64,000 nucleotides of DNA from Flavobacteriales bacterium. GTDB lineage: Bacteria; Bacteroidota; Bacteroidia; Flavobacteriales_F; PHOS-HE28. The notes under the pieces were generated by a model. The model ran no database searches. It worked only from the letters and a program-made list of their open reading frames with translations, and was not told where the DNA came from. Positions 32,001 through 47,816 of this stretch are shown here, one piece after another. The stretch lies in assembly GCA_035325445.1 (NCBI GenBank), contig DAOKZW010000006.1, forward strand, positions 23,776 through 87,775, given 5' to 3'. A program made the position numbers and the translations under genes. The stretch's first letter is position 1; every line of letters starts with the position of its first letter.

Positions 32001-32087
32001 GGATCGATGGATGGGATCGGTTGTTCAGATGTGTGGCAGGCGAATTTATCCTGTTCCTGTTGGGGAGCGGGAATAGCCTTGGCCGTG

Positions 32088-32378
32088 TCAGCCCACGACG
32101 CGGGGCACCTTGAAGTAATCGCTGTCCTTCACCGGCGCATTGGCCAAGGCCTGTTCCTTGGTGATCTCCATGGCTGGCTCGTCGGCCCGCAGGACATCCT
32201 CTCCCTCGGTCATGAAGATCAGGGGCTCCACACCCGTGGTGTCCACTTGCGCCAAGGTTTCCACAAAATCGAGGACCCGCTGCATATCGGCCAGCCTGGT
32301 TGCGCGCACGGCGGGATCCGTCAGGTCCAGTCGCGACAGCTCCGCAATACGGTCCAAGGCCTTTTCGTCGATCTTCAT
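32088..32378 (-). CDS. gatC: Asp-tRNA(Asn)/Glu-tRNA(Gln) amidotransferase subunit C
   Basis: MKIDEKALDRIAELSRLDLTD... 96-aa GatC. ATGA overlap with plsC stop (32375-32378). Confidence 0.85.
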   Translation of the reverse strand: MKIDEKALDRIAELSRLDLTDPAVRATRLADMQRVLDFVETLAQVDTTGVEPLIFMTEGEDVLRADEPAMEITKEQALANAPVKDSDYFKVPRVVG

Positions 32379-33199: not shown

Positions 33200-33285
33200 C
33201 AGGTCTAAAAAGAAGGGCGAAGCTACCTTCTATCTTCGTGCCCTTTCACGGTTAGCCACCCGTTCATAGTGGCCCTTCCCTTCCG

Positions 33286-34254
33286 ATGCGAATCCTCACC
33301 GGCATACAAAGCACCGGGGTTCCCCACTTGGGCAACCTGCTGGGCGCCATTCTTCCGGCCATTTCCATGGGCCGCACCCCGGGCAATGATGCGTTCCACT
33401 TCATCGCCGACCTGCACTCGTTCACCACGGTGCGCGACCCGCAGGCGCTGCGGGAGAACACATACGCTGTGGCGGCGGCGTGGCTGGCATGCGGGCTCGA
33501 TGTGGACCGGGTGACCTTCTATCGGCAGAGCGACGTGCCGGAGGTGACCGAACTGGCGTGGTACCTGGGTTGTCTCACCCCCTACCCCATGCTGGCCAAT
33601 GCACATTCCTTCAAGGACAAGAGCGGCAACGTGAGCCAAGTGAACGCGGGGCTGTTCTACTACCCCGTCCTGATGGCGGCGGACATCCTGCTGTACGATG
33701 CCGAAGTGGTGCCCGTGGGCAAGGACCAGAAACAGCACTTGGAGATCACGCGCGACATGGCCGGGGCGTTCAACCGGCTATACGGGGAAGACACCTTCGT
33801 GGTGCCGGAGGCACGCATCGATGAGCAGCTGATGACCATCCCCGGCACGGACGGGCGGAAGATGAGCAAGAGCTACAACAACACCATCAACATTTTCCTG
33901 CCCGAAAAGGACCTGAAGAAGCAGGTGATGGGGATCGTGACGGACAGCAAGGCCCTGGAAGACCCCAAGGACCCGGCCACGGACAATGTTTTCCAGCTCT
34001 TCAAGCTGGTGGCCCCGCCCGCGGCGGTGGCCGAGATGGAAACGAAATACCGGGCCGGGGGATATGGGTACGGCCATGCCAAGAAGGAGCTGCTATCGGT
34101 GCTCACGGAACGCTTCGCACACGAGCGTTCCACGTTCCAACGGTTGATGGCCGACCGGGCTGAGCTGGACAAGCAACTGGCCATCGGTGCCGAAAAGGCA
34201 CGCTCGGTGGCGGGCCGGACGCTCGACCGGGTGCGGCAAAGGGCCGGCTACTGA
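33286..34254 (+). CDS. trpS: tryptophan--tRNA ligase
   Basis: Class I HIGH (PHLGN) and KMSKS (KMSKS present). 322 aa. Confidence 0.95.
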   Translation: MRILTGIQSTGVPHLGNLLGAILPAISMGRTPGNDAFHFIADLHSFTTVRDPQALRENTYAVAAAWLACGLDVDRVTFYRQSDVPEVTELAWYLGCLTPYPMLANAHSFKDKSGNVSQVNAGLFYYPVLMAADILLYDAEVVPVGKDQKQHLEITRDMAGAFNRLYGEDTFVVPEARIDEQLMTIPGTDGRKMSKSYNNTINIFLPEKDLKKQVMGIVTDSKALEDPKDPATDNVFQLFKLVAPPAAVAEMETKYRAGGYGYGHAKKELLSVLTERFAHERSTFQRLMADRAELDKQLAIGAEKARSVAGRTLDRVRQRAGY

Positions 34255-34377
34255 GGATCGCCGCCTGTCCGATTGTTGATAACCTGTGCAAGACACGGGG
34301 CACCTGTTTTCCTGAAGCGCCATTACCTTGGCCATGAACTTCCTGGCATGTGGCCCGGAATAAAAAAACCAATTGAA

Positions 34378-34533
34378 ATGGCAGCAGCAGTAGAAGCGTA
34401 TTGCGTAAAGTGCAAGGCTAAGCGGAACATGAGGGACGCCGCCCAAGTCACCATGGCCAACGGCCGCAAGGCCATGAAAGGCAAGTGTCCCGAGTGCGGT
34501 ACGGGCATGTTCAAGATCTTGGGCAAGGCCTAA
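34378..34533 (+). CDS. small zinc-ribbon protein (DUF5679-like)
   Basis: 51 aa, MAAAVEAYCVKCKAKRNM...KGKCPECGTGMFKI with a CxxC...CxxC pattern. The longer 86-aa ORF is rejected as an N-terminal extension. Confidence 0.45.
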   Translation: MAAAVEAYCVKCKAKRNMRDAAQVTMANGRKAMKGKCPECGTGMFKILGKA

Positions 34534-34601
34534 CCTTGGGAAGTTCCTTCCGTTTCAGGGGCACGGAAACATCCCCGCTTCCCGGCATTTGATGGAATTG
34601 C

Positions 34602-35381
34602 ATGAAACGGATCGTTTTTCCCGCCCGCAAAACCACGAGGATCCTCTTTTTGATATTGGGGGTACTCGTGGTTTTGCATCTTTTTGTGGCATTCTGCCAT
34701 TTGGTGCTGCATGTGCGTGTAGGTGCCCTGACCGAGTTGGTGGACCTGGACCTTGAGTCGAACCTTCCCACCTTCTTCAACGCGCTGCTTTTCTTCGTCG
34801 GGTCGGCATTGCTGTACCTGCATGGCCGTGCGGGCGATGCCAAACAGGGCAAAGGCTGGGCCGCCATGGCCTTGATCTTCGTGTTCCTCGGCCTTGATGA
34901 AGGCTCGCAGATCCATGAAAAATTCATGGGGTTCACACAGCGCTTGCTGGCCCGCGGCCAGATCGGGGAAGAGGCCGGCAGCTGGCTGTTGAATGCGTGG
35001 GTGGTGCCCTACGTGTTGGCCTTGGGGGTGTTGGCGTTCATCCTTTGGCGCTGGTTCTGGCGCCTGGCCCCGTCGTTGCGGAAGGGGTTGTTGATCAGCG
35101 GCGGCGTGTACGTTTTCGGTGCCGTGGGCATGGAGATGGCCGGTTCCAAGCTGATCGCCACGCTGCCGGGGCAGGATGCATCGGCCTTTCCATGGCTTCC
35201 CTGCGATCTTTACGGCGATCCCTCGGGCTGTTGGCTGTTCATGGAGCCACGCTATATCCTGCTGTATACCTTGGAGGAAGTGGGCGAGATGACGGGCCTG
35301 ATCCTGTGCATCCGTACCCTCTTGCGGCATTTCGAGGCCAACGGGACCCAGCTGTCCCTGTCCTTGGCCAAGGCGGAATAG
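34602..35381 (+). CDS. hypothetical polytopic membrane protein
   Basis: 259 aa with ~7 hydrophobic helices; no recognisable motif. Confidence 0.5.
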   Translation: MKRIVFPARKTTRILFLILGVLVVLHLFVAFCHLVLHVRVGALTELVDLDLESNLPTFFNALLFFVGSALLYLHGRAGDAKQGKGWAAMALIFVFLGLDEGSQIHEKFMGFTQRLLARGQIGEEAGSWLLNAWVVPYVLALGVLAFILWRWFWRLAPSLRKGLLISGGVYVFGAVGMEMAGSKLIATLPGQDASAFPWLPCDLYGDPSGCWLFMEPRYILLYTLEEVGEMTGLILCIRTLLRHFEANGTQLSLSLAKAE

Positions 35382-35388
35382 GCCCGTC

Positions 35389-36501
35389 TCAAACGAACCT
35401 TTCACGGATGATCTTCCCCGATGTGGTGCGGGCGAATTTGGCCAGCGCCACGATGCGGCGGGGCCATTGGTGCTCGGGGAGCACCTTCATCAGCACGGGC
35501 ACCACGTCATCGATCACCTCCTCGGAGTCACGATCGGTTTCCAGCACCATGGCCACGGCCTGCCCAAGCACGGCATCATCCATGGGGATGAAATAATGCG
35601 GGTAAGGCACCATGCCGGCGGTGCTCCTCTCCATCTGTTCCGGATAGAACTTCTTGCCCCCACTCAGGATCACGTTGTCGATGCGGCCCAACCACCGGAA
35701 ATTCCGGTCATCGACCAGGTCCACCAGGTCGTTGGTGACGTGCCGCTTCCGGGTGAGGTGCGGTGTGTTGACCACCAAGCAGCCCCGTTCATCCAATGCG
35801 AACGTTATCCGGCCGATGGCGTGGTAGGCGGCCTCCGGCTGCGGCCCGTTGAGCCTTCGCAAGGCCACGTGGGTCACCGTTTCGGTGCTGCCATACCCAT
35901 GGAACACGGCCGTTCCTAGCCCCTGCACGTCCTCCTCCAAAGCTTGGCTGACGGGCCCTCCGCCCAAGAGGACCGTATCGAACTGCCGTTCCACGCGCGG
36001 CTTGTCCTCTTGGATGGCCCTATGCAACTGCAAGGGCACCATGGCGGTGAAACGGAAGCGGTCCTGCACGCCGCCCAAATTGTCCAACACCGATCCCCGT
36101 GGGCCGATCACATGCAGGTCAAGGCCCAAGGCCATGGCACGCACGACCATCATCTTGCCTGCGATGTACTCACAGGGAAGGCACAGCAGCACCCGATCTC
36201 CTTCGTGCAGCCCGAATGTTTCGGCGGTGAGCCTTGCGCTGTTCACCAGGTCCCTGCGCGGCAGGCTGATCATCTTGGGCGGACCGGTGGTGCCGCTGGT
36301 GGCCACGCGCAAGGAACCGTCTTGGATGGCGAGGTCGAAAACCAGGTCGCAGAGGTCATCCATCCAGGCCTCATCCTCCATGGACCGCTTGCGTTGCCTG
36401 AAATGTTCGACGGCCCCGGGTCCGTCGAACGTCACGCCGTCCACGGTGAGCCGGTTGAAGGACTCCCCGATGCTGTACTTGTATCTCCGGCCGGTGCCCA
36501 T
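35389..36501 (-). CDS. menE: AMP-dependent ligase, probable O-succinylbenzoate-CoA ligase
   Basis: AMP-binding motif TSGTTGPPK. Sits in the men cluster. Start set at MGTGRRYKYS, 1 nt after the menC stop. Confidence 0.65.
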   Translation of the reverse strand: MGTGRRYKYSIGESFNRLTVDGVTFDGPGAVEHFRQRKRSMEDEAWMDDLCDLVFDLAIQDGSLRVATSGTTGPPKMISLPRRDLVNSARLTAETFGLHEGDRVLLCLPCEYIAGKMMVVRAMALGLDLHVIGPRGSVLDNLGGVQDRFRFTAMVPLQLHRAIQEDKPRVERQFDTVLLGGGPVSQALEEDVQGLGTAVFHGYGSTETVTHVALRRLNGPQPEAAYHAIGRITFALDERGCLVVNTPHLTRKRHVTNDLVDLVDDRNFRWLGRIDNVILSGGKKFYPEQMERSTAGMVPYPHYFIPMDDAVLGQAVAMVLETDRDSEEVIDDVVPVLMKVLPEHQWPRRIVALAKFARTTSGKIIRERFV

Positions 36502-36502
36502 G

Positions 36503-37585
36503 TCAGAACCCCAGGCCCGCCGGCCTTGCTGGGAGGTGTATGCGGTGCAGGTCCCATGCCTCTTCCGGCCGGTACCACAGCTGGGCATCCTTCACGGCAA
36601 GTGGTGATGGTATGTTGTCCAAGTACACGCTGCCCGTGCCCAGTCCTTGCGTGCCACGGGCATTGAGGGTGGCGGCCCACTGCGCGATGGCGTTCAGCCC
36701 TATGCTGCTTTCCAGGGCCGAGGTGATCCACCAGCCGATGTTCCTTTCTTCCGCCAGATCGATCCATTCCCGGGCTGCGGCCCAGCCGCCCACCAAGGAA
36801 GGCTTGATCACGATGTATTGGGGCTTCACATTGTCCAGCAGATCCTGCTTCGCCCCCAACGAATGCAGGCCGATCAGGTCTTCGTCCAAGGCGATCGGCA
36901 CGGGCGTGGCGGCGCAGATCTCGGCCATCACCTCGAACAGGCCCTGCCCCACGGGCTGTTCAATGCTTTCCACCTCCAAGGCCGCCAACCGCTCCAACAC
37001 GGGCATCACGTTCTGGTGGGTGAAGGCCCCGTTGGCATCCACGCGCAGGGTAAGCTCATGGGCGGGAAAGTATTTGCGCACCTCGGCCAACAGCTCCAGC
37101 TCATCCTCGATGCCGATGGCCCCGACCTTCATCTTCACGCAGCGGTTACCGCCGTCGATCTGCGCCTGGATGCGTTCGCGCATCGTGGCCTTGTCGCCCA
37201 TCCAGACCAGGCCGTTGATGGGGATGCCCTTGCGGCCCAAGGTGAAGTCTGACGGGAACAGGATCTTGCTGCCGCTGGCCCGCAGGTCGCGCAGGCACTG
37301 CTCCACCGCAAAGCGCACGCTGGGCACGTGCACCAGATCGTGCCGCAGGCGGTCCTCCCAGTCGGTGGTGTTGGCGCACAGCTCCACCAGCTTGGTGCGC
37401 ACGTCCGCCGGAAACTCCATGCTGTGGCCGGGGAACGGGGCCGCCTCACCGATGCCCTTCACCTCCGGGCGATCCTTGTGCCAAGCCACCAGGTACCAGA
37501 CCGTGCGCTCGTGCAGCACCCCCTTGCTGGTGCCCAGCGGGAAGCGCGGCGTGAAGGTGACCTCTTTCCAAACGGCTTCGATCAT
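36503..37585 (-). CDS. menC: o-succinylbenzoate synthase (enolase superfamily)
   Basis: MR/MLE-type residues KMKVG, RVDANGAF, ESIEQP, IALDED. Start MIEAVWKEV overlaps the menA stop (ATGA 37582-37585). The 167-aa N-terminal ORF extension is rejected. Confidence 0.7.
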   Translation of the reverse strand: MIEAVWKEVTFTPRFPLGTSKGVLHERTVWYLVAWHKDRPEVKGIGEAAPFPGHSMEFPADVRTKLVELCANTTDWEDRLRHDLVHVPSVRFAVEQCLRDLRASGSKILFPSDFTLGRKGIPINGLVWMGDKATMRERIQAQIDGGNRCVKMKVGAIGIEDELELLAEVRKYFPAHELTLRVDANGAFTHQNVMPVLERLAALEVESIEQPVGQGLFEVMAEICAATPVPIALDEDLIGLHSLGAKQDLLDNVKPQYIVIKPSLVGGWAAAREWIDLAEERNIGWWITSALESSIGLNAIAQWAATLNARGTQGLGTGSVYLDNIPSPLAVKDAQLWYRPEEAWDLHRIHLPARPAGLGF

Positions 37586-38475
37586 GGGGCAATAACCAAC
37601 CCCAAAGAAAAGAGCAATGCAACAATGAGGGTGGTCAACGCCAACACCTTGAGCTGCGGGTCCAATGCGCGCGGCTCCTGGTTCTTGAGCACGGTGCGCA
37701 GGTGGCGGTCGAAGAATGGGAAGGCGATGATGAACAAGTATTGCCACCACGAGCGGAAGCTGATGGCGGTGAAGACCACCAAGCAGGCAAAGCCCACGAG
37801 CACCAATGCCGCATGATAGGCCTTGGCCCTTGCGGGGCCCAAGCGGACGGCCACGGTGCGCTTGCCGCTGGCGGCATCGTTCTCCACGTCGCGCATGTTG
37901 TTGAGATTGAGGACGCCGGTGGCCAACAAGCCCATGCCTACTGCGGGAAAGAAGACGATGGGTGTAAGGCGCAGCGCATGCAGGTAATAGGTGCCCCCCA
38001 CGCCCAGCAGGCCGAAAAAGAGCAGCACGCTGATGTCGCCGAGGCCGGCATATCCGTACGGGTTGCTTCCGTATGTGTACCACACCGCCGCAGCGATGGC
38101 CGCCAGCCCGAGCAGCAGAAAGAGCAGCGTGGTGATGGAGAAGCCAAGTGCATGGATGATCAACGCCAAGCCCGACATGAATGATAACAGGCCGCAGACC
38201 CAGATGGCCCTCTTCATGGCGGCCGGCGAGATGGCCCCGCTCTGCACCGCACGCTCCGGTCCTACCCGTTGCTGGTTATCCGTGCCATGCAGGTGATCCC
38301 CCAGATCATTGGCCAGGTTGCTGAGCACCTGCAGCAGCACGGCGGTGAGCAGTGCCAACAGGAACACCGGCCAGCGGAAGGCCCCTTCAAACGCGGCCAC
38401 CCCGCTGCCGGTGATGATGCCGCTCATGGCCAAGGGCAGGGTGCGGGGGCGGAAGGCGTGGAGCCAGGGATTCAT
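37582..38475 (-). CDS. menA: 1,4-dihydroxy-2-naphthoate polyprenyltransferase (UbiA family)
   Basis: UbiA motif NLANDLGDHLHGTD. ~8 TM helices. Start chosen at MNPWLHAF. Confidence 0.75.
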   Translation of the reverse strand: MNPWLHAFRPRTLPLAMSGIITGSGVAAFEGAFRWPVFLLALLTAVLLQVLSNLANDLGDHLHGTDNQQRVGPERAVQSGAISPAAMKRAIWVCGLLSFMSGLALIIHALGFSITTLLFLLLGLAAIAAAVWYTYGSNPYGYAGLGDISVLLFFGLLGVGGTYYLHALRLTPIVFFPAVGMGLLATGVLNLNNMRDVENDAASGKRTVAVRLGPARAKAYHAALVLVGFACLVVFTAISFRSWWQYLFIIAFPFFDRHLRTVLKNQEPRALDPQLKVLALTTLIVALLFSLGLVIAP

Positions 38476-38585
38476 GGCGGGGCGCAAGGTATTGGTCCCC
38501 GCCGGGTTCGCGATGCGTGACCCGGCGGGGATAGGAGTTGCATTCCCTTGCCACCTTCGGCCCGGAACATTACGTAACTTCACGC

Positions 38586-38600
38586 GTTCAATACGTGAAC
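38586..38600. promoter_or_regulatory. palindromic operator-like motif GTTCAA-TAC-GTGAAC (plus upstream TTCAC half-site) immediately 5' of the antitoxin start
   Basis: Seen in sequence 4 nt before the ATG at 38604. Typical position for a TA autoregulatory operator. Confidence 0.4.
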
Positions 38601-38603
38601 CCG

Positions 38604-38822
38604 ATGACCGTGAAGCTCACCTTGTCCGTCCCGCCGAAGTTCAAAAAGACGGCGGCCATGCTCAGTCGCCGACGCAAGAAGAGCATTTCCGCCCTGGTGG
38701 TGGAGTTGATCGAGCGCGAGGCGGAAAAGGACAAGGACCGATATGCCGAGATCCGGGGTATATGGAAGGACCGCGACATCACCGCTGAAGAAATCCGCGA
38801 GCGCGCATGGAAACGGTCCTGA
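38604..38822 (+). CDS. type II antitoxin (VapB-like) of VapBC pair
   Basis: 73-aa basic/charged protein MTVKLTLSVPPKFKK... Overlaps the PIN toxin start by 16 nt. Confidence 0.5.
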   Translation: MTVKLTLSVPPKFKKTAAMLSRRRKKSISALVVELIEREAEKDKDRYAEIRGIWKDRDITAEEIRERAWKRS

Positions 38823-39184
38823 TCGATACCAGCATCCTGGTCGGCCTGGCCCGGAATGAAGCAGCCGCCGACAGCGCCCTGGCCCGCGTGGGCGATGCCC
38901 TCCAAGTGATCTGCGACGTGGTGCTCGCCGAAATGCTGGACGGCGCGCGGAACGAGGCGGAGCACGACCGCTTCTTCGCATATTTCAACAAGAACTTCGA
39001 GATCCTTCCACTAACGATGGAAGTGTCCCTGCGCTTCCGGGAGATCCTCCGCTCAACCGGCAAGGAGCGGGGCAAGCACCTCGCCGACTACCTGATCGCC
39101 GCCACGGCGATAGCGCATGACGTGCCGTTGCTCACCTTGAACACCAAGCATTTCAAGGGCATCAAGGGCTTGCAATTGGCTTGA
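38807..39184 (+). CDS. vapC: PIN-domain toxin VapC
   Basis: PIN acidic residues: VLIDTSIL (D6), ...EMLDG..., ...LIAATAIAHDVPLLTLN (D). 125 aa. Confidence 0.8.
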   Translation: METVLIDTSILVGLARNEAAADSALARVGDALQVICDVVLAEMLDGARNEAEHDRFFAYFNKNFEILPLTMEVSLRFREILRSTGKERGKHLADYLIAATAIAHDVPLLTLNTKHFKGIKGLQLA

Positions 39185-39240
39185 GAAGCCCATACGTGCA
39201 TCATTCGAAAAGGTGGTAACAGAAGGGAATCCCACTACTC

Positions 39241-39393
39241 TTGGTCCAACTCAACCACGAAGTGGTCGGGGAACGGGTCGGCGTGCTGAGCAAGTTCCCG
39301 TTCCGGGTGGTATACGAGGTTGACGGTTACGAGGTGATCATTTACCGCGTGGTACACATGAGGCGCAGGCCACACGAACGGTTCAGGCCGTAA
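39241..39393 (+). pseudogene. RelE/ParE-family toxin, C-terminal half only (truncated remnant)
   Basis: Own translation of + strand: ...GERVGVLSKFPFRVVYEVDGYEVIIYRVVHMRRRPHERFRP*. The RelE/ParE C-terminal signature is present but there is no N-terminal half or ATG. The overlapping - strand ORF 39235-39525 is rejected. Confidence 0.4.
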
Positions 39394-39737
39394 GGAAGGC
39401 TTCCTCGAGCGCAACCAGCCCTCTGCTACCCACAACCACTGGCCGCCGATGGCAGCGTACGGGGCTTGGAAGCGTTCAGGCCTGTACCTATCGGACCGTG
39501 TCGTGCATGGCCCCGCACTTTTCACTTCAACTGCTTCGTGCTATATTTATCCTATCAACGATCCACCCCATCACAAAGGCACTCCCGCCCATGCCTATTG
39601 GCGGCTAGACGCAATGCGCATTTTGCACTTCAGATTCAGTATGTCGCTGATCGTTAGGACGGTACAGCAAAACAGACACCCCGTTCAGTTGCGTCTATTA
39701 ACGAGTTAGCGGGCATTATAATGACAGACAGCCGGCA

Positions 39738-40328
39738 ATGAATATTTGGATAATAATTTTGGCAGTCCTAGTCTATGCGTTCTACGATCTCCCTTTGGAA
39801 ATTACGGATACTTTTTTGGCATATTTAATTCCCTTCATCATATCAATAGTTTGTTTAGCTACATTGATTTTAAACTTTCGGACTATTTCTTTATTAACAT
39901 ATAAACATAAGGTAATTGCAAGGTTTTTTAACTGGGTAGCTACAATTGTTTTTAGCGCTATGACTTTGTGGAACTTTCCAATCCCTGTTGACAGAGGTTA
40001 TCGTAACAAAAACTGGACTGACATTGATATGCTTATTAACCCTAACAATCTGACAGAACAATACGTTCGACAACATATAGAATTTGGTGGTTCCGATATG
40101 CCGGGACAAAATGTCAAGGTTCAAAAAATAAACTCATGGCTACGTTGGCGACATCACGCTGACACAAAAAAATTAAATGGACAATGGTTATTCATTGATA
40201 ATTCAAATAATGGATATAACAGCCCACCATTTAACTTAGACGAAACCAAAATTGACTATGACAGGGATAAACAAAAAGCAAAGCTTGTTACAATTGTAAA
40301 TGGACGAGTGGAACATAACGCCCGCTAA
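39738..40328 (+). CDS. hypothetical membrane protein encoded in an AT-rich (~35% GC) foreign segment
   Basis: 196 aa with three N-terminal TM helices and an Asn/Lys-rich soluble C-terminal domain. Strong compositional contrast with the ~65% GC surroundings. TATAAT hexamer at 39716-39721. Confidence 0.55.
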   Translation: MNIWIIILAVLVYAFYDLPLEITDTFLAYLIPFIISIVCLATLILNFRTISLLTYKHKVIARFFNWVATIVFSAMTLWNFPIPVDRGYRNKNWTDIDMLINPNNLTEQYVRQHIEFGGSDMPGQNVKVQKINSWLRWRHHADTKKLNGQWLFIDNSNNGYNSPPFNLDETKIDYDRDKQKAKLVTIVNGRVEHNAR

Positions 40329-40504
40329 CACACGTTTGGCGCAATGGGGGCCGACCCGGTTCACTGAAAGCTTGTGCTTCTGTTGTAAATTCGTGTTGGC
40401 TGACGATTTAGTTTTCCAAAATCCCCACTGCCCCGAGCGTGGGAACGTTAGTAGTGAACACGTTGGCCCGATACACATCGGGCCGATAGGTATCGGACGC
40501 TCCC

Positions 40505-42178
40505 CTATCCCAATTCCTTGAAGTAATTCCGCAGCACCTGGGGCGAAACCTCCGCATCCGTCTTCACCACCAGCACCGCCGGTTTTTCGTGGGGCTTGTA
40601 TAGCTCCTGCAGCGCCGCTTGCAGCGTGGCGCCATCATGGGCTTCGTAGCACGCCAGGCCGTAGCTCTTCACCAAGGCGGGGATGTCGCGGCCATGCGGT
40701 GACTCGAACCAGGGCAGCAATTCGGGGTCCTTGTCGGGCCCTTCGATGTAGCGGAAGATGTTGCCGCCGCCGTTGTCGATCACGATCACGCGCAGGTCGG
40801 GCGAGAGATACTTGTTCCAGAAGGCATTGCTGTCGTAGCAGAAGGCCACGTCGCCGGTGATGAGGGTGGTGGGCCTGCCGGTGGCATGGGCCGCGCCCAC
40901 GGCGGTGCTGGTGCAACCGTCTATGCCGCTGGTGCCGCGGTTGCTGAAGAAGCGCAGGCCGCGTGTGCGATCAAGAAGCTGCACGTAGCGCGCCGCCGTG
41001 CTGTTGGCCAGGTGTACGTCGCTGCCTTCGGGGATCCTTTCCAGCAAAGCCTGGAACACGGTGAGGTCGCAGTAGGGCGCTTTCTTCAACAGGCCGTCGT
41101 GTGCCTCGCGCATGCGTTGGGCCACCATGCGCCACGCCTCGGCGTAGAGGCTTTCGTTGGGCTTCACCTGCCCTTCCATCTGCGCCAGGAATATGTGCGG
41201 CGCCACGGCGATGTCGTGCGTGAGGCTCTGGAAGGTGTCGTAGTGCCGCCGCTCCTCGTCGATGTGCCAATGCTGGGCAGGCTTCCATTTGCGCAGCAGG
41301 CCCTTGATGCGCTTGCTGACAATGGCCCCGCCGAAGGTGATCAGGATGTCCGGCTTCAGGTCCTTCTCGTTGCCATCGTTCACGCCTTCCAAGGTGCGGT
41401 CGATGCAGGTGATGAAGGCCTCATCATCCAAGTTGGACGTGGCCTCGGTGAGTACCGTACACTGCGGGAGTTTGGCCCATTGCTTCAGTTGGGCCTTGAA
41501 GGCATCGCCCCAGTAGCCCTGGCCCACCAGCACCATCACCTTCAGGCTTTGGGAGAACTGTTGGCCCCGCCATCCCTTGTCGGGCAGCATGAAGGAAGCC
41601 ACGGGCATGGGGGCGATCAGGCGCAGGTCCTGGGTGTCATCCGTGCGGCCGTAGAGCGGTTCGGCGAAGGGTACATTCACCTGCACGGGGCCCGGCACGG
41701 GCAGCAGGGTGGCATCGATGGCGGCATTGATCAAGCGGCCGGCATGCCACCTCGCCAGATCGTCCGTGGCGCGCGGCAACTGCACGCTCCGCTTCAGGTG
41801 CGGTGCCAGGACATGCTGTTGACGGATGGTCTGCCCCTCGCCCTGATCGATCCACTCCTCGGGCCTGTCGGCGCTGATCACCAGCAGGGGTATGCGCTGG
41901 TAGAAGGCCTCGGCCACGGCCGGGCCGTAGTTGAGCACGGCGCTGCCGCTGGTGCAGATGAGGGCCACGGGCCGGTGCAGTTGCTGGGCCATGCCCAAGG
42001 CGAAGAAGGCCGCGCTGCGCTCATCGATCACCTGCAAGCAGGTGATGCCGGCTTGTTGTTGGAAGGCGATCACCAGCGGCGCGTTGCGCGAGCCGGGGCT
42101 GATGACCGCGTGGGTAACGCCCTTTTCGGCACAGAGCCGGGCCAGTGCAGCGGCGGTGAAGTGGTCCGTTGTCGGCAT
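40505..42178 (-). CDS. menD: 2-succinyl-5-enolpyruvyl-6-hydroxy-3-cyclohexene-1-carboxylate synthase
   Basis: TPP-enzyme pattern (VISPGSRNAPL ... GTSGIDG). 557 aa. In the men cluster. Confidence 0.85.
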   Translation of the reverse strand: MPTTDHFTAAALARLCAEKGVTHAVISPGSRNAPLVIAFQQQAGITCLQVIDERSAAFFALGMAQQLHRPVALICTSGSAVLNYGPAVAEAFYQRIPLLVISADRPEEWIDQGEGQTIRQQHVLAPHLKRSVQLPRATDDLARWHAGRLINAAIDATLLPVPGPVQVNVPFAEPLYGRTDDTQDLRLIAPMPVASFMLPDKGWRGQQFSQSLKVMVLVGQGYWGDAFKAQLKQWAKLPQCTVLTEATSNLDDEAFITCIDRTLEGVNDGNEKDLKPDILITFGGAIVSKRIKGLLRKWKPAQHWHIDEERRHYDTFQSLTHDIAVAPHIFLAQMEGQVKPNESLYAEAWRMVAQRMREAHDGLLKKAPYCDLTVFQALLERIPEGSDVHLANSTAARYVQLLDRTRGLRFFSNRGTSGIDGCTSTAVGAAHATGRPTTLITGDVAFCYDSNAFWNKYLSPDLRVIVIDNGGGNIFRYIEGPDKDPELLPWFESPHGRDIPALVKSYGLACYEAHDGATLQAALQELYKPHEKPAVLVVKTDAEVSPQVLRNYFKELG

Positions 42179-42181
42179 GGT

Positions 42182-43291
42182 TCAATTCGCTTGGGCACCG
42201 TTTTCCAGGGCCCGCAGCCAAGTACGGGCTTTCCGTTCGGTTTCCGTCCATTCCATTGCGGGGTCGCTTCCTGCGGTGATCCCGGCGCCCACCATCAATT
42301 GCGCCCCGCCGCCCTTCAGGCGCATGCAGCGCAGGTTGACGAACAGCTCGGTGGTGCCATCCATATTCCAAGGCCCCCAAAAACCGGCATACAAGGAGCG
42401 GTCATGTCCTTCGTGGTGCCGGATGAAGCGCCGGGCCTTATCATTGGGTGTCCCGCAAACGGCCGGTGTGGGATGCAGACGCGACACCAAAGTCGCCAAC
42501 GAGGTTCCGTGCAGTTCGGCCTCCAGAACGGTGTGCAGGTGCGCCACGGGGCCGGCCTTGAGCACCTGCGGCCCTTGGACCTTGGTGCCATGCATCCGCA
42601 GTTCGGCGAAGAGGTCCCGCAGGTACTCCGTGACCCGCGCCTGTTCGTCCAACTCTTTTTCCCCCCACTCTCTGATCGTTGGCGGAACGGCCTCCACGGG
42701 GCGCGTGGCCGCGATGGAGTCGACCCGGACATGGTCGCCCGATGCCTTCACGAGCCGTTCCGGCGAGGCTCCCATCCATAGGCCATGTTCAGGCGTGCAG
42801 GCCATGGCCACCAAGGTATGCGGGTTGTCCTGCATGGCCCAGATGAACAGGTCGGGCCAGCTGGATGCCGGGATATCGGCCTCCTTTACACGGGAAAGCA
42901 CCACCTTGCCCAACCGCCCTTCGGCACAGGCCTGCTTGGCGGCGTCCACCGCATCCATGAACTCCTGTTTGCCGGTCGGTGCATCCGTCGGGTCGGGCAT
43001 CCCGTCGCTTCCCCGGCACGCCTGCAGCCCAGTGCCCTCCTCTTCGTGGGCCGTGAAAGTCAGCTCCACATCGGCGCGTATGAAAGGGATCCGTTGCGGA
43101 TCGATGGTGAACGGGGCCACGACGAACACTTTTTCCAAGGCTGCAAGCCCGGGCCAGTCGGCCCCCTCCGTTCCTGGCCCCACCTGGGCCCAAATGCGCA
43201 CGGAACCGCCGGGCGTCCGGAAGGCGGCGAACGTCAGCCGCTCCCGGATGCACAACGCGAGCGCTTCCTGCAACCCGGGAAAGAGGCTCAT
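42182..43291 (-). CDS. menF: isochorismate synthase
   Basis: Chorismate-binding C-terminal domain (GGAQLMVGAGITAGSDPAMEWTETERK). Start MSLFPGLQE overlaps the thioesterase stop (ATGA 43288-43291). Confidence 0.8.
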   Translation of the reverse strand: MSLFPGLQEALALCIRERLTFAAFRTPGGSVRIWAQVGPGTEGADWPGLAALEKVFVVAPFTIDPQRIPFIRADVELTFTAHEEEGTGLQACRGSDGMPDPTDAPTGKQEFMDAVDAAKQACAEGRLGKVVLSRVKEADIPASSWPDLFIWAMQDNPHTLVAMACTPEHGLWMGASPERLVKASGDHVRVDSIAATRPVEAVPPTIREWGEKELDEQARVTEYLRDLFAELRMHGTKVQGPQVLKAGPVAHLHTVLEAELHGTSLATLVSRLHPTPAVCGTPNDKARRFIRHHEGHDRSLYAGFWGPWNMDGTTELFVNLRCMRLKGGGAQLMVGAGITAGSDPAMEWTETERKARTWLRALENGAQAN

Positions 43292-43707
43292 GCCCGCTTG
43301 GTGATCACCATGTTGGTCAAACGGCAAACCGCCACCAGTTCGCCCGCTTCGTTGGTCACCCGGATATCCCACACATGCGTGGTGCGCCCCCTGTGGAGCA
43401 GGGTTCCCGTGGCCTTGACCCGTCCCGACGTGGCGCTTTTAAGATGGTTCGCGTTCAGCTCAATGCCCACCACGGCCTGCGTACCCAGGTCGACCAGCAT
43501 GGCGGACCCCATGCTGCCCAAGGTCTCAGCCAAGGCGGCGGTGGCACCGCCATGCAGCAGGCCCATAGGCTGTTTGGTACGATGGTCCACCGGCATGGTG
43601 GCCGAAAAGGTCCCTTCGGGGCTGGGCACGAACTCAATGCCCAAGTGGGACACCATGTTCTCTTTTTGGATGGCGTTGGCCCACGCGATCTGCTTCTCCG
43701 TGAACAT
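43288..43707 (-). CDS. hotdog-fold thioesterase (PaaI-like), probable 1,4-dihydroxy-2-naphthoyl-CoA hydrolase
   Basis: PaaI signature GLLHGGATAALAETLGS. Start at MFTEKQIAW. Upstream of menF. Confidence 0.6.
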   Translation of the reverse strand: MFTEKQIAWANAIQKENMVSHLGIEFVPSPEGTFSATMPVDHRTKQPMGLLHGGATAALAETLGSMGSAMLVDLGTQAVVGIELNANHLKSATSGRVKATGTLLHRGRTTHVWDIRVTNEAGELVAVCRLTNMVITKRA

Positions 43708-43779
43708 GGCGCGAAAGTACTCCGTGCACCCGCGGATGGAAGATCGGGGAAAGTTCGGCCCAAGGCCGATCTTTGCACC

Positions 43780-44544
43780 ATGAAAGGGCTGGATCCAACT
43801 GACAAGGCGCAAGGCAGCTCACCGGTTGACGAGGCGGATGCCGGGGGTGCCAAGGCCAAGAAGCGCCTGTTGCTGGTGGAGGACGAGGAATCGCTTCGCT
43901 CCACGCTGCGGATGAACTTCGAGCTGGAAGGGTATACGGTGACCACGGCGGTTCGGGGTGGCGAGGCCTTGGATCGGATCAGGGGTGCGCGATTCGACGG
44001 CATCGTGCTGGATGTTATGCTGCCTGACGTTGACGGCTTCACCATTTGTGAGACGATCCGTTTGGAGGGTGACCGGACCCCTGTTCTATTCCTGACGGCC
44101 CGCACCAATGCTGCGGACCGTGTGCGTGGCTTGCGTGCCGGCGATGATTTCCTGGCCAAGCCCTTCGACCTGCAGGAGTTGCTGCTTCGCGTGGAGAAGC
44201 TGGTGAGCCGCGCGGACGAGGGCAGCACGGCGGCGGCCCCCGCACACATCGAGTTCGGCAGCAACACCGTGGATTTCGTCACTTACAAGATCAGCGGGCA
44301 GCGGGGGCTGAAGAAGCGGCTTACCCAGCGCGAGATGCTGCTGTTGCGCCTGCTCACCGAGCGGGCTGGCGAAGTGGTCTCCCGTGAAGAGATCCTGCAG
44401 AAAGTTTGGGGCTACGATGTGTTCCCCACCACCCGGACCATTGACAACTTCATCGTTTCCTTCCGGAAATACTTCGAGTCCAACCCGCACGATCCCAAGC
44501 ACTTCCGGTCCATCCGGGGCGTTGGATACACCTTTATGCCATAA
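43780..44544 (+). CDS. OmpR-family response regulator
   Basis: Receiver domain (LLVEDEESL ... DGIVLDVMLPDVDGF ... LTAR) and winged-helix C-terminus (RIRGVGYTF). Start ATG verified at 43780. The 135-aa upstream extension in the ORF track is rejected. Confidence 0.85.
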   Translation: MKGLDPTDKAQGSSPVDEADAGGAKAKKRLLLVEDEESLRSTLRMNFELEGYTVTTAVRGGEALDRIRGARFDGIVLDVMLPDVDGFTICETIRLEGDRTPVLFLTARTNAADRVRGLRAGDDFLAKPFDLQELLLRVEKLVSRADEGSTAAAPAHIEFGSNTVDFVTYKISGQRGLKKRLTQREMLLLRLLTERAGEVVSREEILQKVWGYDVFPTTRTIDNFIVSFRKYFESNPHDPKHFRSIRGVGYTFMP

Positions 44545-44646
44545 TTTTCTTCGGCCAGAGGCAACCGAACCGGCCCTCCCTCGTCTTGTATTCAGATTCG
44601 AGGGTTTTCCTTTGATCTGGTTCCTAATCCTTGCAGGTTTACCGCG

Positions 44647-44679
44647 CAGGGGCCCGAAATGGGCCCCTGTTCGGTTTTT
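44647..44679. terminator. stem-loop terminator between the convergent response-regulator and nuclease genes
   Basis: CAGGGGCCC-gaaat-GGGCCCCTG followed by TTCGGTTTTT. Confidence 0.6.
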
Positions 44680-44695
44680 AGGGGGCGCCACGCCT

Positions 44696-47449
44696 TCAAT
44701 CCCCTGCCTCCGCCAAGCAAAACGCACAGTATTTGCTCTCCGGATCATGCTCCACGGGCAATGCTGGATCCATCATCTCCTTCACCGCCTGGGCCAGCAG
44801 GCCCGCCATGGCCGGCAAGTCATCCCGCGTGATGGTGTCCCGCCCTCCCACTTGCAGCAGCAGGGGCTTGTTGCTTTCGCCGGTTTGAAGGGGCAGGATA
44901 CCGGCCTGCAACGCCTGCACATCTGGATGCCGCTTCAAATAGAGCCACGCGTACACCATCAATTGGGCGGCGTAGCGTTTGCTTCCTTTCAGGTCCTTCA
45001 AGTCCCATCCGCCCACCTTCAAGTCCTCCTCCTTCACCCGGCCCGTCTTCAGGTCCAGGATGCGCACCATTTGGCCGAGCTTGTCCACCCGGTCCAAGCG
45101 CCCTTGGATCCTCACCGTTGAGCCGATGGCCTCGGTGGCCTCCTGCAAAACGGCATCAAGGCCCAGCTCTTGGGCCAGCACCGTGACCTGTGCCCCGGCA
45201 CGCAATTCCGCCACCTCGTTCAACAGGAAACGGCGCGCGGCATGCAGGGCCATGTGGAACTGCAGCATCGGTTGGCCTTGCGTCAATTGGTCCACGTGCA
45301 GCTTCTTCCCCAACTCGGCAGTGAGCCTTTCCTGCAGCCCCACGACCGCCTTTTCCAATTCCTCCGCCACCAGCTGCCTTCCGAGGAAAGGTTCCAGTAC
45401 GCCCTCCATGGCATTGTGCAGGGCCTCGCCCAGCACGTTGGCCGCGATCCGCGCATCATGCTCATCACTTTCCTTCAGGCGCAACACCTGCTTGAAGTGG
45501 AAATCGAGAGGACATCGCAACCAATCGCCCAAGGCCGATGGCGACAGGCCCTTGTCCAACCTTCTTCGCAAGGCCTCCAGCACGGCGTCGTCCTTGCGCA
45601 CCTTCACGGCCACCGGCGCCGGGACCGCCAGGCCCGTACGTGCCTCGCGCACCTCCATGGCCTGGTCCCGCTCCTTGAACAATTCGTGCTGCAACTGCAT
45701 GATGAAGCGGCTCGGCCCGCCTCCTTCATCCTCTTCGGGCCAGACCAGGGTGGCGCTTTCGCAGCGCTGCAACATGCGCATGAAATTGTAGGCCTGAACG
45801 GCATCGGTCTCGTCGCGCATGGGCATGGCATGCCCGCGGCGCAGCTCGAACGGTATATAGCTGCGTTCCGTGGTGTTGGCGGGCAGCACGCCTTCCTTGG
45901 CCCCCAGCAGGATGAGGTGCCCGGTATCCAAGGCCCTGGCCTCGAGCATGCCCATCACCTGCACGCCGGCCAGGGGTTCGCCATAGAAGCCGATGCGGGC
46001 ACCCGCCAGCAGGCGGCGGAACACGGTGGCATAGGCCTTCACGTCCAACTGGTGGCCATAGCGGTCCAGCATCAGGTGCACGCGCTGCAGCACACGCGAC
46101 GCCTGGAAGATCTGCTCCAACGCGAAGCCGTCCCCGGCCATCGCCTTCATGGCCCATGCCAACGCCCTGGCCGTAACGTCCGGCATGAAACGGGCCACAT
46201 CCTCCATTTCGATGAAAACGCCCTCTGCCTCGGGGAACAGGCCGCTTTTGCCGAACGCTTCACGCAGAAAGGCGGCATCGTGATAAGGCCGCTGCTTCCT
46301 GCGCACCTCGGCAAGCACTTCGATCATGGCCTTCCCGCGGTTTTTGTCACGCAGGAACGGGTGGCCCAGCAAGCGCTCCAGGTCCTTCAGGAAAAAGCCT
46401 TGCCCCGGCCTTGCCCCCGCGAACAGCTGGTGCAAGGCCTCGAGGAAAGAGCCCACCGGCAACTGCGCGGCAGGCAGGCCCATGGTGATGTTGAACGGCC
46501 CCAGCTCCCGCGGCAGGGCCTCGAGCAGGGGCGGCAACAGGCTTTCGTCCGCCAAGACCAGGGTGGTGGCGTTCCGTTCCTCCGTCTTGGCCTGCTTCAG
46601 CAGTTCGGCGGCACACCAGGCCTGCGCCACGTTGTTGGGGGCACGCACGGCCTTGATCCGCCCGGTATCACCGGAAAACCCGTCATCGAGCGGGATGACG
46701 CCGGGTCCGAATTCGCCGATGGCCTTGCGCAAATAGTGGCCCGCCTCCTGCACGCCCCCCTCCACATAATAACGGTCCCCTTCCCAGGCCATTCGGGCCA
46801 GGCCATTGCCGCGGAAGATGCGCACCACGGCGGCCTGGGCCGGCGTGAATGCGTTCAGGCCCGCGAACCACACGGCCTTCCAGCGGGACCGGCCCTGCTT
46901 GGCCCCTGCCACGGCGGTCCGTTCGATCAGCCCGCTGGTACCCGCTCCCAGCTCCAGCAACCGCGTGTTCAGCGCGGCGTGCAGCCTGCCCACCATGGCC
47001 CAGTACCGGATCATCCGATACTGCCCCGGGCTCAGGTCCTGGTCCTTGAAGGTCCACTCGATATCCTCCCACATCCGCAGGTCGCGGTAGTAGGTATCCA
47101 GGTTCACCAAGTGTGCGTCCGCCTCACTGATATCGGCCAGGGCTGTATTGCCCCATCGCAGGAAATCACCCAAGGGTTGCGCACCCTCGCCTTCGGCCTT
47201 GCGGTAGGCTTCATACCCTTCAAAGAGCAGTTCTTCGTTGGCCAACGGGCGCAATCCGGAGAGCTCTTCCATAAAGGTTCCTATGGTGAACAACTGGGGG
47301 CTCCACTGGGCTTTTCCCGTGTCTTCGGCGATCCATTTGCGCAGGTACAGGCCTGCCCGCTGGCTGGGCAGTACCACCGCCACGTCGCGTAACCCATCGG
47401 GGTGCTCCTTGATGATGGCCTTGGCCACTTTCCGCAGGAATGGTTCCAT
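44696..47449 (-). CDS. AddB-like PD-(D/E)XK nuclease family protein (inactive-helicase N-terminus + RecB-type nuclease C-terminus)
   Basis: C-terminal nuclease motif RIDRVDKL...ILDLKTGRVK...QLMVYAWL. Start set at MEPFLRKVAKAI. Confidence 0.65.
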   Translation of the reverse strand: MEPFLRKVAKAIIKEHPDGLRDVAVVLPSQRAGLYLRKWIAEDTGKAQWSPQLFTIGTFMEELSGLRPLANEELLFEGYEAYRKAEGEGAQPLGDFLRWGNTALADISEADAHLVNLDTYYRDLRMWEDIEWTFKDQDLSPGQYRMIRYWAMVGRLHAALNTRLLELGAGTSGLIERTAVAGAKQGRSRWKAVWFAGLNAFTPAQAAVVRIFRGNGLARMAWEGDRYYVEGGVQEAGHYLRKAIGEFGPGVIPLDDGFSGDTGRIKAVRAPNNVAQAWCAAELLKQAKTEERNATTLVLADESLLPPLLEALPRELGPFNITMGLPAAQLPVGSFLEALHQLFAGARPGQGFFLKDLERLLGHPFLRDKNRGKAMIEVLAEVRRKQRPYHDAAFLREAFGKSGLFPEAEGVFIEMEDVARFMPDVTARALAWAMKAMAGDGFALEQIFQASRVLQRVHLMLDRYGHQLDVKAYATVFRRLLAGARIGFYGEPLAGVQVMGMLEARALDTGHLILLGAKEGVLPANTTERSYIPFELRRGHAMPMRDETDAVQAYNFMRMLQRCESATLVWPEEDEGGGPSRFIMQLQHELFKERDQAMEVREARTGLAVPAPVAVKVRKDDAVLEALRRRLDKGLSPSALGDWLRCPLDFHFKQVLRLKESDEHDARIAANVLGEALHNAMEGVLEPFLGRQLVAEELEKAVVGLQERLTAELGKKLHVDQLTQGQPMLQFHMALHAARRFLLNEVAELRAGAQVTVLAQELGLDAVLQEATEAIGSTVRIQGRLDRVDKLGQMVRILDLKTGRVKEEDLKVGGWDLKDLKGSKRYAAQLMVYAWLYLKRHPDVQALQAGILPLQTGESNKPLLLQVGGRDTITRDDLPAMAGLLAQAVKEMMDPALPVEHDPESKYCAFCLAEAGD

Positions 47450-47816
47450 ATCCACTATTGGCGTTCCGTTCAGATGAACGGCCTGGCTGGCCGATCTTTG
47501 CGCAAAGTAGCCCGCGATGGATGATCCGCTGTTCCCGTTGTACCGCCGCTCCATCAATGGATTGAATTGGTACCGGATCGATTCGCCCACGGCGGTGACC
47601 GAGGTGCAGCGCGTGGGGAGCCGGCATGTGGTACACCGCTTGGAGGCCATTGCCTATCCGGAACAGGTGCGGGTGCTGTCGTTGATCGACATGCACGACG
47701 GGCATGTGGAGGAGTGCCCTGCCGAGGAGGTGGAGGAGTTGATCGATCGATCGGGCCGCCAAGGTTGAGCAACCTTCAATCAGGTGCATCGTATCGCCGT
47801 ACATTGCCGTCTCTCC

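Follow-up and report, generated by a model that had tools for sequence, protein, structure and literature searches.

The 64,000-nt stretch of DNA analysed here (the window) carries an insert between the menaquinone genes menD and menA. We found that this insert is very probably composite: next to a VapBC pair and some gene debris lies a single integron-type cassette that was captured recently. It would have been assembled in at least three layers, with the cassette as the third.

The men genes lie on the minus strand, spaced by 1-3 nt or overlapping by 4 nt, the tight packing described in the first-pass annotation. The gene menA (37582-38475) encodes a UbiA-family prenyltransferase of 297 aa (Pfam UbiA, 2.7e-30) and is the first gene of menA-menC-menE, with menC at 36503-37585 and menE at 35389-36501. 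The gene menD (40505-42178) encodes SEPHCHC synthase (Pfam TPP_enzyme_N, TPP_enzyme_M_2 and TPP_enzyme_C) and closes the upstream thioesterase-menF-menD block, in which menF occupies 42182-43291. Comparison of 70 orthologous menD loci showed the empty site in the two relatives nearest to the window, L021 and L036: there, menD and menA overlap or are separated by 6-15 bp, as against a gap of 2,029 bp in the window (38476-40504). The menD products of L021 and L036 share 85% and 81% amino acid identity with that of the window, and the L021 menA orthologue shares 82%. The annotation was right that an insert splits the men genes and that it holds a plus-strand block with vapB-like and PIN genes, but the insert spans 38476-40504 against the relatives’ empty site and does not begin at 38584. 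The possibility raised there, that all relatives have the same intervening block, does not hold for L021 and L036, which lack it.

In the 56 loci with both genes identified, between 2 bp and 7.9 kb of DNA of varying content separates menD from menA, and the junction is a recurrent insertion hot spot in this Flavobacteriales lineage. In three loci (L022, L026, L070) the opening 68-111 nt of menA occur on both sides of the insert as direct repeats. A comparable arrangement is known from SXT/R391 ICEs, which insert at the 5’ end of prfC and give the gene a new one in exchange. The three inserts are similar in that they provide the intact menA with both its 5’ end and its upstream region; they differ in that they have no integrase or conjugation genes, and the window has no detectable repeat. 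Around the window insert, no significant flanking direct repeats or target-site duplication were found. We also looked within the insert for a degenerate copy of the 5’ end of menA like that of L026, and rejected it (local alignment score of 21, shuffle mean 20.9). The right flank of the insertion, reaching to the menD stop codon (40447-40504), contains two short palindromes (40468-40496), and was confined to the window’s species among the loci compared. A 14-nt inverted repeat (39485-39498 and 40479-40492) was also seen, at about the frequency expected by chance in 2.3 kb by a rough estimate.

The cassette (39706-40446, plus strand) runs from TTAGCGGGC... to ...GGGAACG and has a GC content of 38%, compared to 62% for the window (61.9%). 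Its single ORF (39738-40328, plus strand) encodes 196 aa with 34.5% GC, and its GC3 is 0.32, compared to 0.60-0.88 in every other gene of the window. GC in 200-nt windows falls to 0.31-0.37 at 39700-40300 and stays at 0.55-0.69 elsewhere, a single dip in 64 kb. The protein has three N-terminal membrane helices and a beta-rich C-terminal domain, and its AlphaFold model has a pLDDT of 84. We found 30 homologues with 47-99% identity and many invariant residues; no Pfam, NCBIfam or PADLOC family and no informative PDB match were found. We would guess at an accessory role associated with the envelope.

The candidate attC site of the cassette is a 139-nt hairpin (40318-40456, plus strand). It is the sole match in the 64-kb window to R1, a home-made covariance model built from other attC sites with the window sequence left out, and it matches at full length with 48.3 bits (E 4.8e-9), forming 20 of the 21 modelled pairs. 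The R1 score partly reflects plain homology, as attC sites of orthologous cassettes (L091_a1, L092_a3) were in the model. R'' is GCCCGCTAAC (40320-40329), which holds the TAA stop codon, and R' is AAC|GTTAGTA (40444-40453). These boxes fit RYYYAAC/GTTRRRY partially, agreeing in the AAC/GTT triplets and in 2-3 more positions only.

The structure behind R1 came from a single member and was entered manually, with pair counts as the check. Across nine attC sites, the window excluded, 74.6% of cells pair, compared to 60% for shuffled sequences (0 of 500 shuffles reach this value) and 29-41% when the pairing partners are slid; 12 pairs have compensatory changes on both sides. RNAalifold, applied to the MAFFT alignment of the attC sites, did not predict a structure. 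R1 also finds attC sites beside homologues outside the model (L099, L100, L101, L103, L105). These sites form a uniform subfamily of ~139-140 nt, up to ~196 nt, while classical attC sites measure ~57-141 nt.

Both ends of the cassette are exact. Homology to the copies in arrays begins precisely at G|TTAGCGGGC (39705), and DNA identity over 39705-40330 to cassettes within the arrays L092, L093 and L094 is 80.7%. The 5’ end GTTAGCGGGCATTAT complements ATAACGCCCGCTAAC at the stop codon at 14 of 15 nt (repeat I6). The same complementarity between the first bases of a cassette and its own R'' occurs in L014 and in every array cassette examined; it is the hallmark expected of a circular intermediate.

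The closest homologues, P0003 (79%) and P0002 (80%), sit in unidirectional arrays of small ORFs, in which the spacers begin with ...(A/C)TAAC at the stop codon and finish with ...AAC|GTTA. The neighbours of the cassette change from one copy to the next: those in L092, L093 (two copies) and L094 differ in their upstream or downstream cassettes. In L095 the cassette ORF lies between prfA and a UbiA-family gene, and in the window it lies between vapBC and menD. The contigs bearing the arrays are low in GC (34-39%). Most array ORFs have no assigned function, and one array carries a HigB/HTH toxin-antitoxin cassette. More distant homologues were found in Bacteroidales and in Bacteroidota MAGs, and a protein-profile scan of metagenome contigs found 4 loci.

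A sister strain type (L014 and L106), with 96.5% identity over vapBC, carries different cassettes at the same junction. Its first cassette holds a different AT-rich ORF, of 242 aa, and an attC of its own that scores 98.5 bits (bottom-strand fold z = -5.5). Behind it another AT-rich ORF begins, which makes at least two other cassettes. Samples SRR22825181 and SRR2107128 contain the window type of the locus, and SRR19427039 and ERZ27299006 the sister type. A resemblance of the 28-aa N-terminus of the second to NhaA was considered and gave no Pfam match. The presence of two other cassettes at the identical junction suggests that the site was used repeatedly.

The cassette in the window is joined at the end of a conserved 105-nt docking block (39603-39705, plus strand; ending ...TCTATTAACGAG|TT), which is 97% identical between strain types bearing different cassettes. 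Just upstream, the non-coding stretch at 39394-39602 has ~80% identity between the strain types (window aligned to L014 and L106), and homology between strains ends at ~39712. The ~340 bp of non-coding DNA described earlier ends in this conserved block, the docking point of the cassette. No match to the block was found in a 20-mer metagenome scan (0 matches) or in the other loci, and the scans found neither a cassette-free copy nor further strain variants. Known RNA families were not detected in 38400-40600 (Rfam, 0 matches at E <= 1); Rfam includes no attC family. A candidate second attC in the non-coding stretch (39598-39712) was unsupported, with at most 7 bits by R1 with filters off. The block may be a secondary site of the attG type or one resembling attI.

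Between vapC and the non-coding stretch we found two gene fragments. The first (39235-39300, minus strand) is an ORF6N-like N-terminal fragment; it has no Pfam match itself, and the homologous stretch of L014 (785-1018, minus strand) matches Pfam ORF6N at 2.9e-7. In this sister strain, an intact ORF6N gene is inserted at the position corresponding to window 39284/39332. The second fragment (39241-39393, plus strand, 50 codons) was previously described as a truncated RelE/ParE gene. The match to the C-terminal end of the profile stands (Pfam ParE_toxin, positions 63-88 of 89), but with an E value of 0.0036 it does not reach the cut-off, and there is no PDB match. Neither a full-length fold nor an antitoxin ORF alongside was found, so that this ORF is plausibly, at best, a toxin remnant, which the profile match supports weakly. 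Together, the ORF6N and RelE/ParE C-terminal fragments would represent the second layer, as leftovers of earlier insertions.

The first layer, and earliest resident of the insert, would be the VapBC type II toxin-antitoxin operon. The vapB-like gene (38604-38822, plus strand, 72 aa) matches Pfam VAPB_antitox (2.3e-5) and DUF6364 (5e-5), both slightly under cut-off, and its product shares 85% amino acid identity with the L026 orthologue. The vapC gene (38807-39184, plus strand, 125 aa) encodes a PIN-domain RNase (Pfam PIN, 9.3e-16) with 90% identity to that of L026, and matches NCBIfam VapC (5e-12, under the equivalog cut-off) and the PDB structure of VapC 7by2 (2.2e-5). The two genes overlap by 16 nt, with the small antitoxin gene preceding the PIN toxin gene as in VapBC operons. 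By eye, the PIN acidic residues D7, E42 and D94 are present, and the fourth position, in ...TLNTKHF..., is non-acidic.

We found vapBC orthologues at the equivalent spot beside menA in three other species (L026, L042, L089), and in one of these, direct repeats corresponding to ~111 nt from the start of menA flank the module. The vapBC unit of L026 has homology to the window from 38568 onwards. The DNA identity of vapBC to L026 is 78-80%, compared to 67-76% for the flanking men genes, and its identity to L089 is below that of the flanks. Recent lateral transfer of vapBC was considered and is not demonstrated, as its identity to L026 is only slightly above the flanks. Together with the fragments, vapBC has a near-native GC content of 55-64%. 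This suggests that vapBC is an old, native-looking resident divergently transcribed from menA, whose spread may be read as vertical inheritance with losses or as lateral.

The insert would also affect transcription of the men genes. Co-transcription of menD and menA would have been lost, and menA-menC-menE would start from a promoter in the 128-bp spacer between vapB and menA (38476-38603), which should hold the promoters of both divergent genes. Within this spacer lie a perfect GC-rich hairpin of 12 bp (38496-38531) and a palindrome near vapB. A sigma-70-type promoter scan was at chance level, no Bacteroidetes-type TTTG-N17-23-TAnnTTTG match was found, and a terminator scan found none.

We propose that the cassette came from a pool circulating on low-GC contigs. 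A circular cassette, with the predicted junction ...CGAGCGTGGGAACG|TTAGCGGGCATTATAATG..., would have used its folded attC to recombine with duplex chromosomal DNA at G|TT, in a hypothetical target ...TTAACGAG|TTAGTAG.... The site before capture is predicted to have been ...TCTATTAACGAGTTAGTAGTGAACACG..., and the junctions resulting from this exchange would be ...AACGAG|TTAGCGGGC... and ...GGGAACG|TTAGTAG.... Catalysis may be attributed to an integron integrase encoded elsewhere or since lost.

Several other explanations were weighed against this composite origin. The first-pass annotation treated the whole 1.9-2 kb block as one acquired genomic or defence islet that entered once with an integrase and has since decayed. 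The block is indeed missing from the closest relatives and contains toxin-antitoxin genes and gene fragments; furthermore, the intact ORF6N gene of the sister strain matches the PADLOC candidate PDC-S05. However, that sister-strain gene is the only PADLOC match, and no such match marks the window itself as a defence islet. The AT-rich gene of about 35% GC is confirmed and its foreign nature stands, but the composition shift is confined to ~39700-40330, and vapBC has native GC, positional orthologues in three species, and divergence like that of the flanks. Moreover, the AT-rich gene has exact cassette limits and an attC, and occurs elsewhere without vapBC. We detected no Phage_integrase-type match (gene calls ~10 kb on either side of the AT-rich ORF, plus 10 mid-sized ORFs), no tRNA in 30000-50000, and no target-site duplication, leaving none of the features of a classical genomic island except a foreign composition limited to the cassette. 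The absence of an integrase in the searched ORFs agrees with the annotation, but it is not evidence of decay, since a cassette needs no local integrase. Entry as a single islet is therefore very improbable. Even less credible is an ordinary foreign gene with a terminator whose likeness to attC is fortuitous. The hairpin of the window alone folds no better than shuffles (z = -0.7), and the promoter and terminator scans are uninformative. Against this, the hairpin has no T-run and gives the R1 match described above, covariation extends across unrelated cassettes, and the same ORF has differing neighbours in arrays.

Two further explanations accept the cassette and differ on how the site came to hold it. 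The locus could be the remnant of a complete chromosomal integron, with the 105-nt block as attI and intI deleted where the RelE/ORF6N debris lies, leaving a CALIN serviced in trans. This would account for the joining of different cassettes at one and the same position in both strain types, with at least two in one of them, for the conservation of the block compared to the sequence just upstream, and for the scrambled upstream region. We consider it unlikely, as the insert contains no intI-like ORF or fragment, none of the 70 related loci (0/70) has an attC at the menD-menA locus, the block is found nowhere else in the loci or the metagenome collection, and complete integrons are reported to be rare in Bacteroidetes genomes. 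No integron-integrase gene, which in a complete integron lies next to attI and a Pc promoter, was found in the searched ORFs of the window. Homologous recombination, by natural transformation or other transfer, is somewhat less probable still. Here the cassette would be passive cargo between vapBC and menD homology, with no integrase in the lineage, which could explain the differences between strains and possibly the original arrival. The flanks are kept between strain types, and the menA 5’ repeats around inserts elsewhere in the family suggest homology-driven events. However, the exact G|TT start of both cassettes and the complementarity to their own R'' are left unexplained; these features mean that attC-type recombination must have placed a cassette here once.

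Beyond the composite origin of the insert, we tentatively suggest a joint proposal, which we regard as rather doubtful. The docking block would be a dedicated orphan attI-like site served in trans, at which the population samples cassettes from the low-GC contig pool, and a second insertion mechanism, duplicating the first 68-111 nt of menA, would target the menD-menA junction across the family.

As a lone attC with no integrase found nearby, the captured cassette is a SALIN or a small CALIN. A SALIN is a single attC site without an integron-integrase. It arises when the attC of a cassette recombines with a genomic site (attG), for which the consensus is 5’-GWT-3’ (Loot et al., bioRxiv 10.1101/2022.09.11.507474). 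The window fits this description, with one ORF and one attC, no second attC in 64 kb, a position between housekeeping genes, and G|TT junctions that agree with 5’-GWT-3’. It differs in that its host is an uncultured high-GC Flavobacteriales bacterium and not a proteobacterium, that the sister strain holds at least two other cassettes at the identical junction, and that the unusually conserved 105 nt before the junction resemble a dedicated site more than a random GWT. CALINs were described in 2016 (PMC4889954) and are treated by IntegronFinder 2.0 (bioRxiv 10.1101/2022.02.28.482270). Several of our loci (L106, L091-L094, L099 and L103) resemble them, being same-strand arrays in which attC sites separate small ORFs and no integrase is visible. 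The window has one attC, compared to a default threshold of two. The uniform attC size of the subfamily, at or above the classical upper size, is another difference.

Toxin-antitoxin genes also adjoin cassettes in the sedentary chromosomal integrons of Vibrio (PMC11023631), where they are themselves cassettes and stabilise the integron. In contrast, the VapBC genes of the window contain no attC (R1, filters off), face away, and would predate the cassette, and are best described as a neighbour. Among Bacteroidota, the small low-GC same-strand arrays with conserved spacers are similar to the rAID-1 clusters of Bacteroidales, in which low-GC same-strand small genes lie beside a XerD-like recombinase together with immunity genes. 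The spacers found here differ: they are hairpins of the attC type carrying AAC/GTT boxes, and neither a recombinase nor an immunity gene was matched.

To our knowledge, work on integrons has dealt almost exclusively with Proteobacteria. The locus described here shows that cassettes with a distinct ~140-nt attC subfamily circulate on low-GC contigs, and that one was inserted, with no integrase nearby, amid a core biosynthetic cluster of a 62%-GC Flavobacteriales bacterium. It provides a natural example of genome-inserted cassettes (SALIN/attG) beyond model organisms, and a combination of toxin-antitoxin genes and an AT-rich gene with no integrase need not signal a decayed island. The menD-menA junction is thus a concrete place for asking whether such insertions get reused like attI.

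The menaquinone genes in the window fall into two minus-strand groups, one formed by a 4HBT thioesterase gene, menF (42182-43291) and menD (40505-42178), and the other by menA (37582-38475), menC (36503-37585) and menE (35389-36501). Within each group the spacing is 1-3 nt or the genes overlap by 4 nt, so the gene calls bear out the tight packing described in the first-pass annotation. We also recovered the plus-strand block described there between menD and menA. It consists of a vapB-like ORF of 72 aa (38604-38822; Pfam VAPB_antitox and DUF6364, each slightly below the cut-off), a PIN gene overlapping it by 16 nt (38807-39184; Pfam PIN, 9e-16; PDB VapC 7by2, 2e-5), a 50-codon ORF (39241-39393), ~340 bp without an ORF, and an AT-rich ORF of 196 aa (39738-40328). 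About 8 kb from the insert, precomputed gene calls place an RHS/YD-repeat-like ORF (~29760-30776, plus strand) with faint or weak Pfam matches.

The junction was compared with relatives by scanning one genome per species, which gave 70 loci carrying a menD relative. Every one is from an uncultured Flavobacteriales or Bacteroidota MAG, and many apparently stem from wastewater-type projects. In the two closest, L021 (menD 85%) and L036 (81%), menD and menA are 6-15 bp apart or share an ATGA overlap. Relative to this empty site the insert spans 38476-40504 (2,029 bp), confirming the proposed insertion.

The predicted GC drop was also found. In 200-nt windows, GC is 0.31-0.37 in the AT-rich stretch versus 0.55-0.69 across the rest of the 64 kb, and this is the sole dip. 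The AT-rich ORF has 34.5% GC and a GC3 of 0.32, compared to 61.9% GC for the window and a GC3 of 0.60-0.88 for all other genes. The shift is limited to ~39700-40330, where the ORF is foreign in composition; vapBC and the neighboring fragments are near-native.

Judged by its ends, the AT-rich gene belongs to the integron-type cassettes: its boundaries are precise and it carries an attC of its own. Its 196-aa product has ~30 homologues (47-99% identity, many invariant positions), and no named family was found for the protein or its homologues. The closest homologues (79-80%) are on contigs of 34-39% GC (L091-L094), within unidirectional arrays of small ORFs that include a HigB/HTH toxin-antitoxin pair. 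The array spacers (135-230 bp) open at the stop codon with ...(A/C)TAAC and close with ...AAC^GTTA (^, junction). The bases with which each array cassette begins, following G^TT, form the reverse complement of its own 3'-end box, a hallmark of a circular cassette intermediate. The window cassette has the same arrangement, with 14/15 nt pairing between GTTAGCGGGCATTAT (39705-39719) and ATAACGCCCGCTAAC (40315-40329). At the DNA level it matches the array copies at 80.7% over 626 nt, beginning precisely at 39705, and the leader ...GGCATTATAA(A/T)GACAGACA... is common to both. The motif GACAGACA(A)AAC(A) directly precedes the ATG in many cassettes (L091-L094, the sister-strain locus L106 and window 39720-39737), and may be a translation-initiation or promoter-proximal element.

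To describe the attC site, nine sites from the arrays and sister-strain locus L014, excluding that of the window, were aligned, and an R/L-box structure drawn by hand was tested against them. Of the cells, 74.6% pair, versus 60% in column shuffles (0/500 reach 74.6%) and 29-41% with the partners slid, and both sides have changed at twelve pairs. The covariance model built from these sites (R1) gave one match in the 64-kb window, at 40318-40456 (48.3 bits, E 4.8e-9, full length, 20/21 pairs). Part of this score is plain homology, because two of the model sites belong to orthologous cassettes. With filters off, there was no other match above 7 bits in 38300-40700. R1 gave no site in any of the 70 related men loci. 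It matched beside the sister-strain cassette (98.5 bits) and beside homologues outside the model (L099, L100, L101, L103 and L105). The bottom strand of the L014 attC folds at -35 kcal/mol (z = -5.5). On its own, the attC of the window shows no folding advantage over shuffled sequence (z = -0.7), and it has no Rfam match.

Two other homologue loci were inspected. At L099 9097-10720, on a 465-kb Bacteroidales MAG contig, three attC matches border small ORFs, one of which encodes a homologue of 52% identity, and a type I restriction-modification/Fic/protein-kinase gene cluster lies immediately upstream of them; no integrase was found within 10 kb. In the low-GC genome of L095, prfA and a UbiA-family gene flank a 71%-identical copy (1020-1760). 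Its cassette 5' boundary, AC^GTTAGCGTTCATTA, is retained, but R1 detected no attC there. This copy looks like another isolated insertion, possibly a domesticated cassette.

The window locus was recovered in several metagenome runs by exact-sequence look-ups, together with a sister strain type (L014, L019, L020, L106) whose vapBC is 96.5% identical. From ~39712 on, the sister strain carries a different AT-rich ORF, 242 aa long and lipoprotein-like at its N-terminus, and its cassette shares the joining base of the window cassette. By this comparison, one cassette has been swapped for another between sister strains, at a single base. In L106, the attC of this cassette gives way to G^TTACCTGC... 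and the beginning of another AT-rich ORF, which brings the sister strain to at least two cassettes. The left junction reads ...TCTATTAACGAG^TTAGCGGGC and the right ...GGGAACG^TTAGTAGTG, giving a reconstructed target ...AACGAG^TTAGTAG... with GTT at the crossover. Insertion of cassettes at genomic attG sites is reported to follow a 5'-GWT-3' consensus and to yield a single attC without integrase (SALIN) (bioRxiv 10.1101/2022.09.11.507474), and the reconstructed target is compatible with this consensus. Between the strain types, identity is 97% over the 105 nt leading up to the junction and ~80% over the 200 nt preceding those; this pattern would fit a secondary site in repeated use or one of attI-like type. 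As first noted, no integrase was found, either in gene calls ~10 kb on each side of the AT-rich ORF or among ten further mid-sized window ORFs. No tRNA was found in 30000-50000.

The sister strain has an intact minus-strand ORF6N-domain gene inserted at window 39284/39332 (L014 1283-1840; L106 603-1160; Pfam 3.5e-36; PADLOC candidate defence family PDC-S05, 6e-59), where the window has only fragments. No defence-model match was found within the window itself. Within 39235-39393 there is an ORF6N-like N-terminal fragment (minus strand), matched by Pfam (2.9e-7) in the sister-strain copy alone, and a weakly supported RelE/ParE-like C-terminal fragment (plus strand). The latter had been called a truncated RelE/ParE gene, and a C-terminal match is indeed seen, but in the ParE_toxin profile the 50-codon ORF covers just the final 26 positions (E 0.0036), with no PDB match. 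VapBC orthologues occupy exactly the position of the window vapBC, divergent from menA, in L026 (VapB 85%, PIN 90% aa), L042 and L089. The vapBC DNA identity to L026 is 78-80%, compared to 67-76% for the flanking men genes. Since this is near that of the flanks and the GC is native, VapBC is an old resident of the junction, not a recent import; its distribution would fit both vertical descent with losses and lateral spread. Thus, the first-pass reading holds for an insertion, a foreign AT-rich gene and a missing integrase, but a single decayed islet does not fit a precisely bounded cassette with its own attC beside an old, near-native vapBC.

The menD-menA junction is a family-wide insertion hot spot, ranging from 2 bp to 7.9 kb. 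In most species menB lies between menD and menA; it is missing there in the window and 12 relatives, and this variable position indicates repeated rearrangement of the cluster. MenB is a 273-aa naphthoate synthase and is nowhere in the 64-kb window. Many relatives have additional genes between menB and menA, and other toxin-antitoxin-type genes adjoin menA (DUF433 in L022, DUF5615 in L034). Copies of the initial 68-111 nt of menA, counted from the ATG, lie as direct repeats at the ends of the DNA inserted between menB and menA in L022 (12755-12822), L026 (12799-12873 and 13557-13667) and L070 (12593-12661; menD on the plus strand in all three). The old copy keeps the menB junction and the intact menA takes its 5' end from the insert. 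No integrase is present at these inserts, which points to an unknown process of insertion or duplication acting on the menA 5' end. The window shows no detectable repeat of this kind. One of the repeat pairs in L026 encloses vapBC, and a second is joined to an ORF with MORN repeats. The 7.9-kb insert of L034 (11790-19592) carries genes for two secreted-type proteins of very large size, a tandem set of four paralogous low-GC lipoproteins (15969-18030, 41-46%), an IS200-like Y1 transposase (Pfam 3.6e-7) and the DUF5615 gene. The menD-menA spacer of L025 (11760-11960) consists, by eye, of about three tandem ~60-bp repeats (CCCTTTGCG..TTGGCGGTTAAG...).

The insert removes the tight menD-menA coupling of L021 and L036, and we infer that the 128-bp vapB-menA spacer would then have to drive menA-menC-menE. 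Scans for promoter and terminator patterns gave results at chance level. A perfect 12-bp GC-rich hairpin with a 12-nt loop (TCCCCGCCGGGT ... ACCCGGCGGGGA, 38496-38531) separates the vapB promoter region from the menA start. This hairpin lacks a T-run, and L026 does not have it. If one role is to be named for the 196-aa protein, we predict an accessory membrane or envelope-associated protein, carried on a mobile cassette. The element is of a kind already known, a SALIN or small CALIN (attC cluster without integrase). What is new here is the cassette identity of the AT-rich gene and its exchange at one base, in a host phylum in which integrons are little described.
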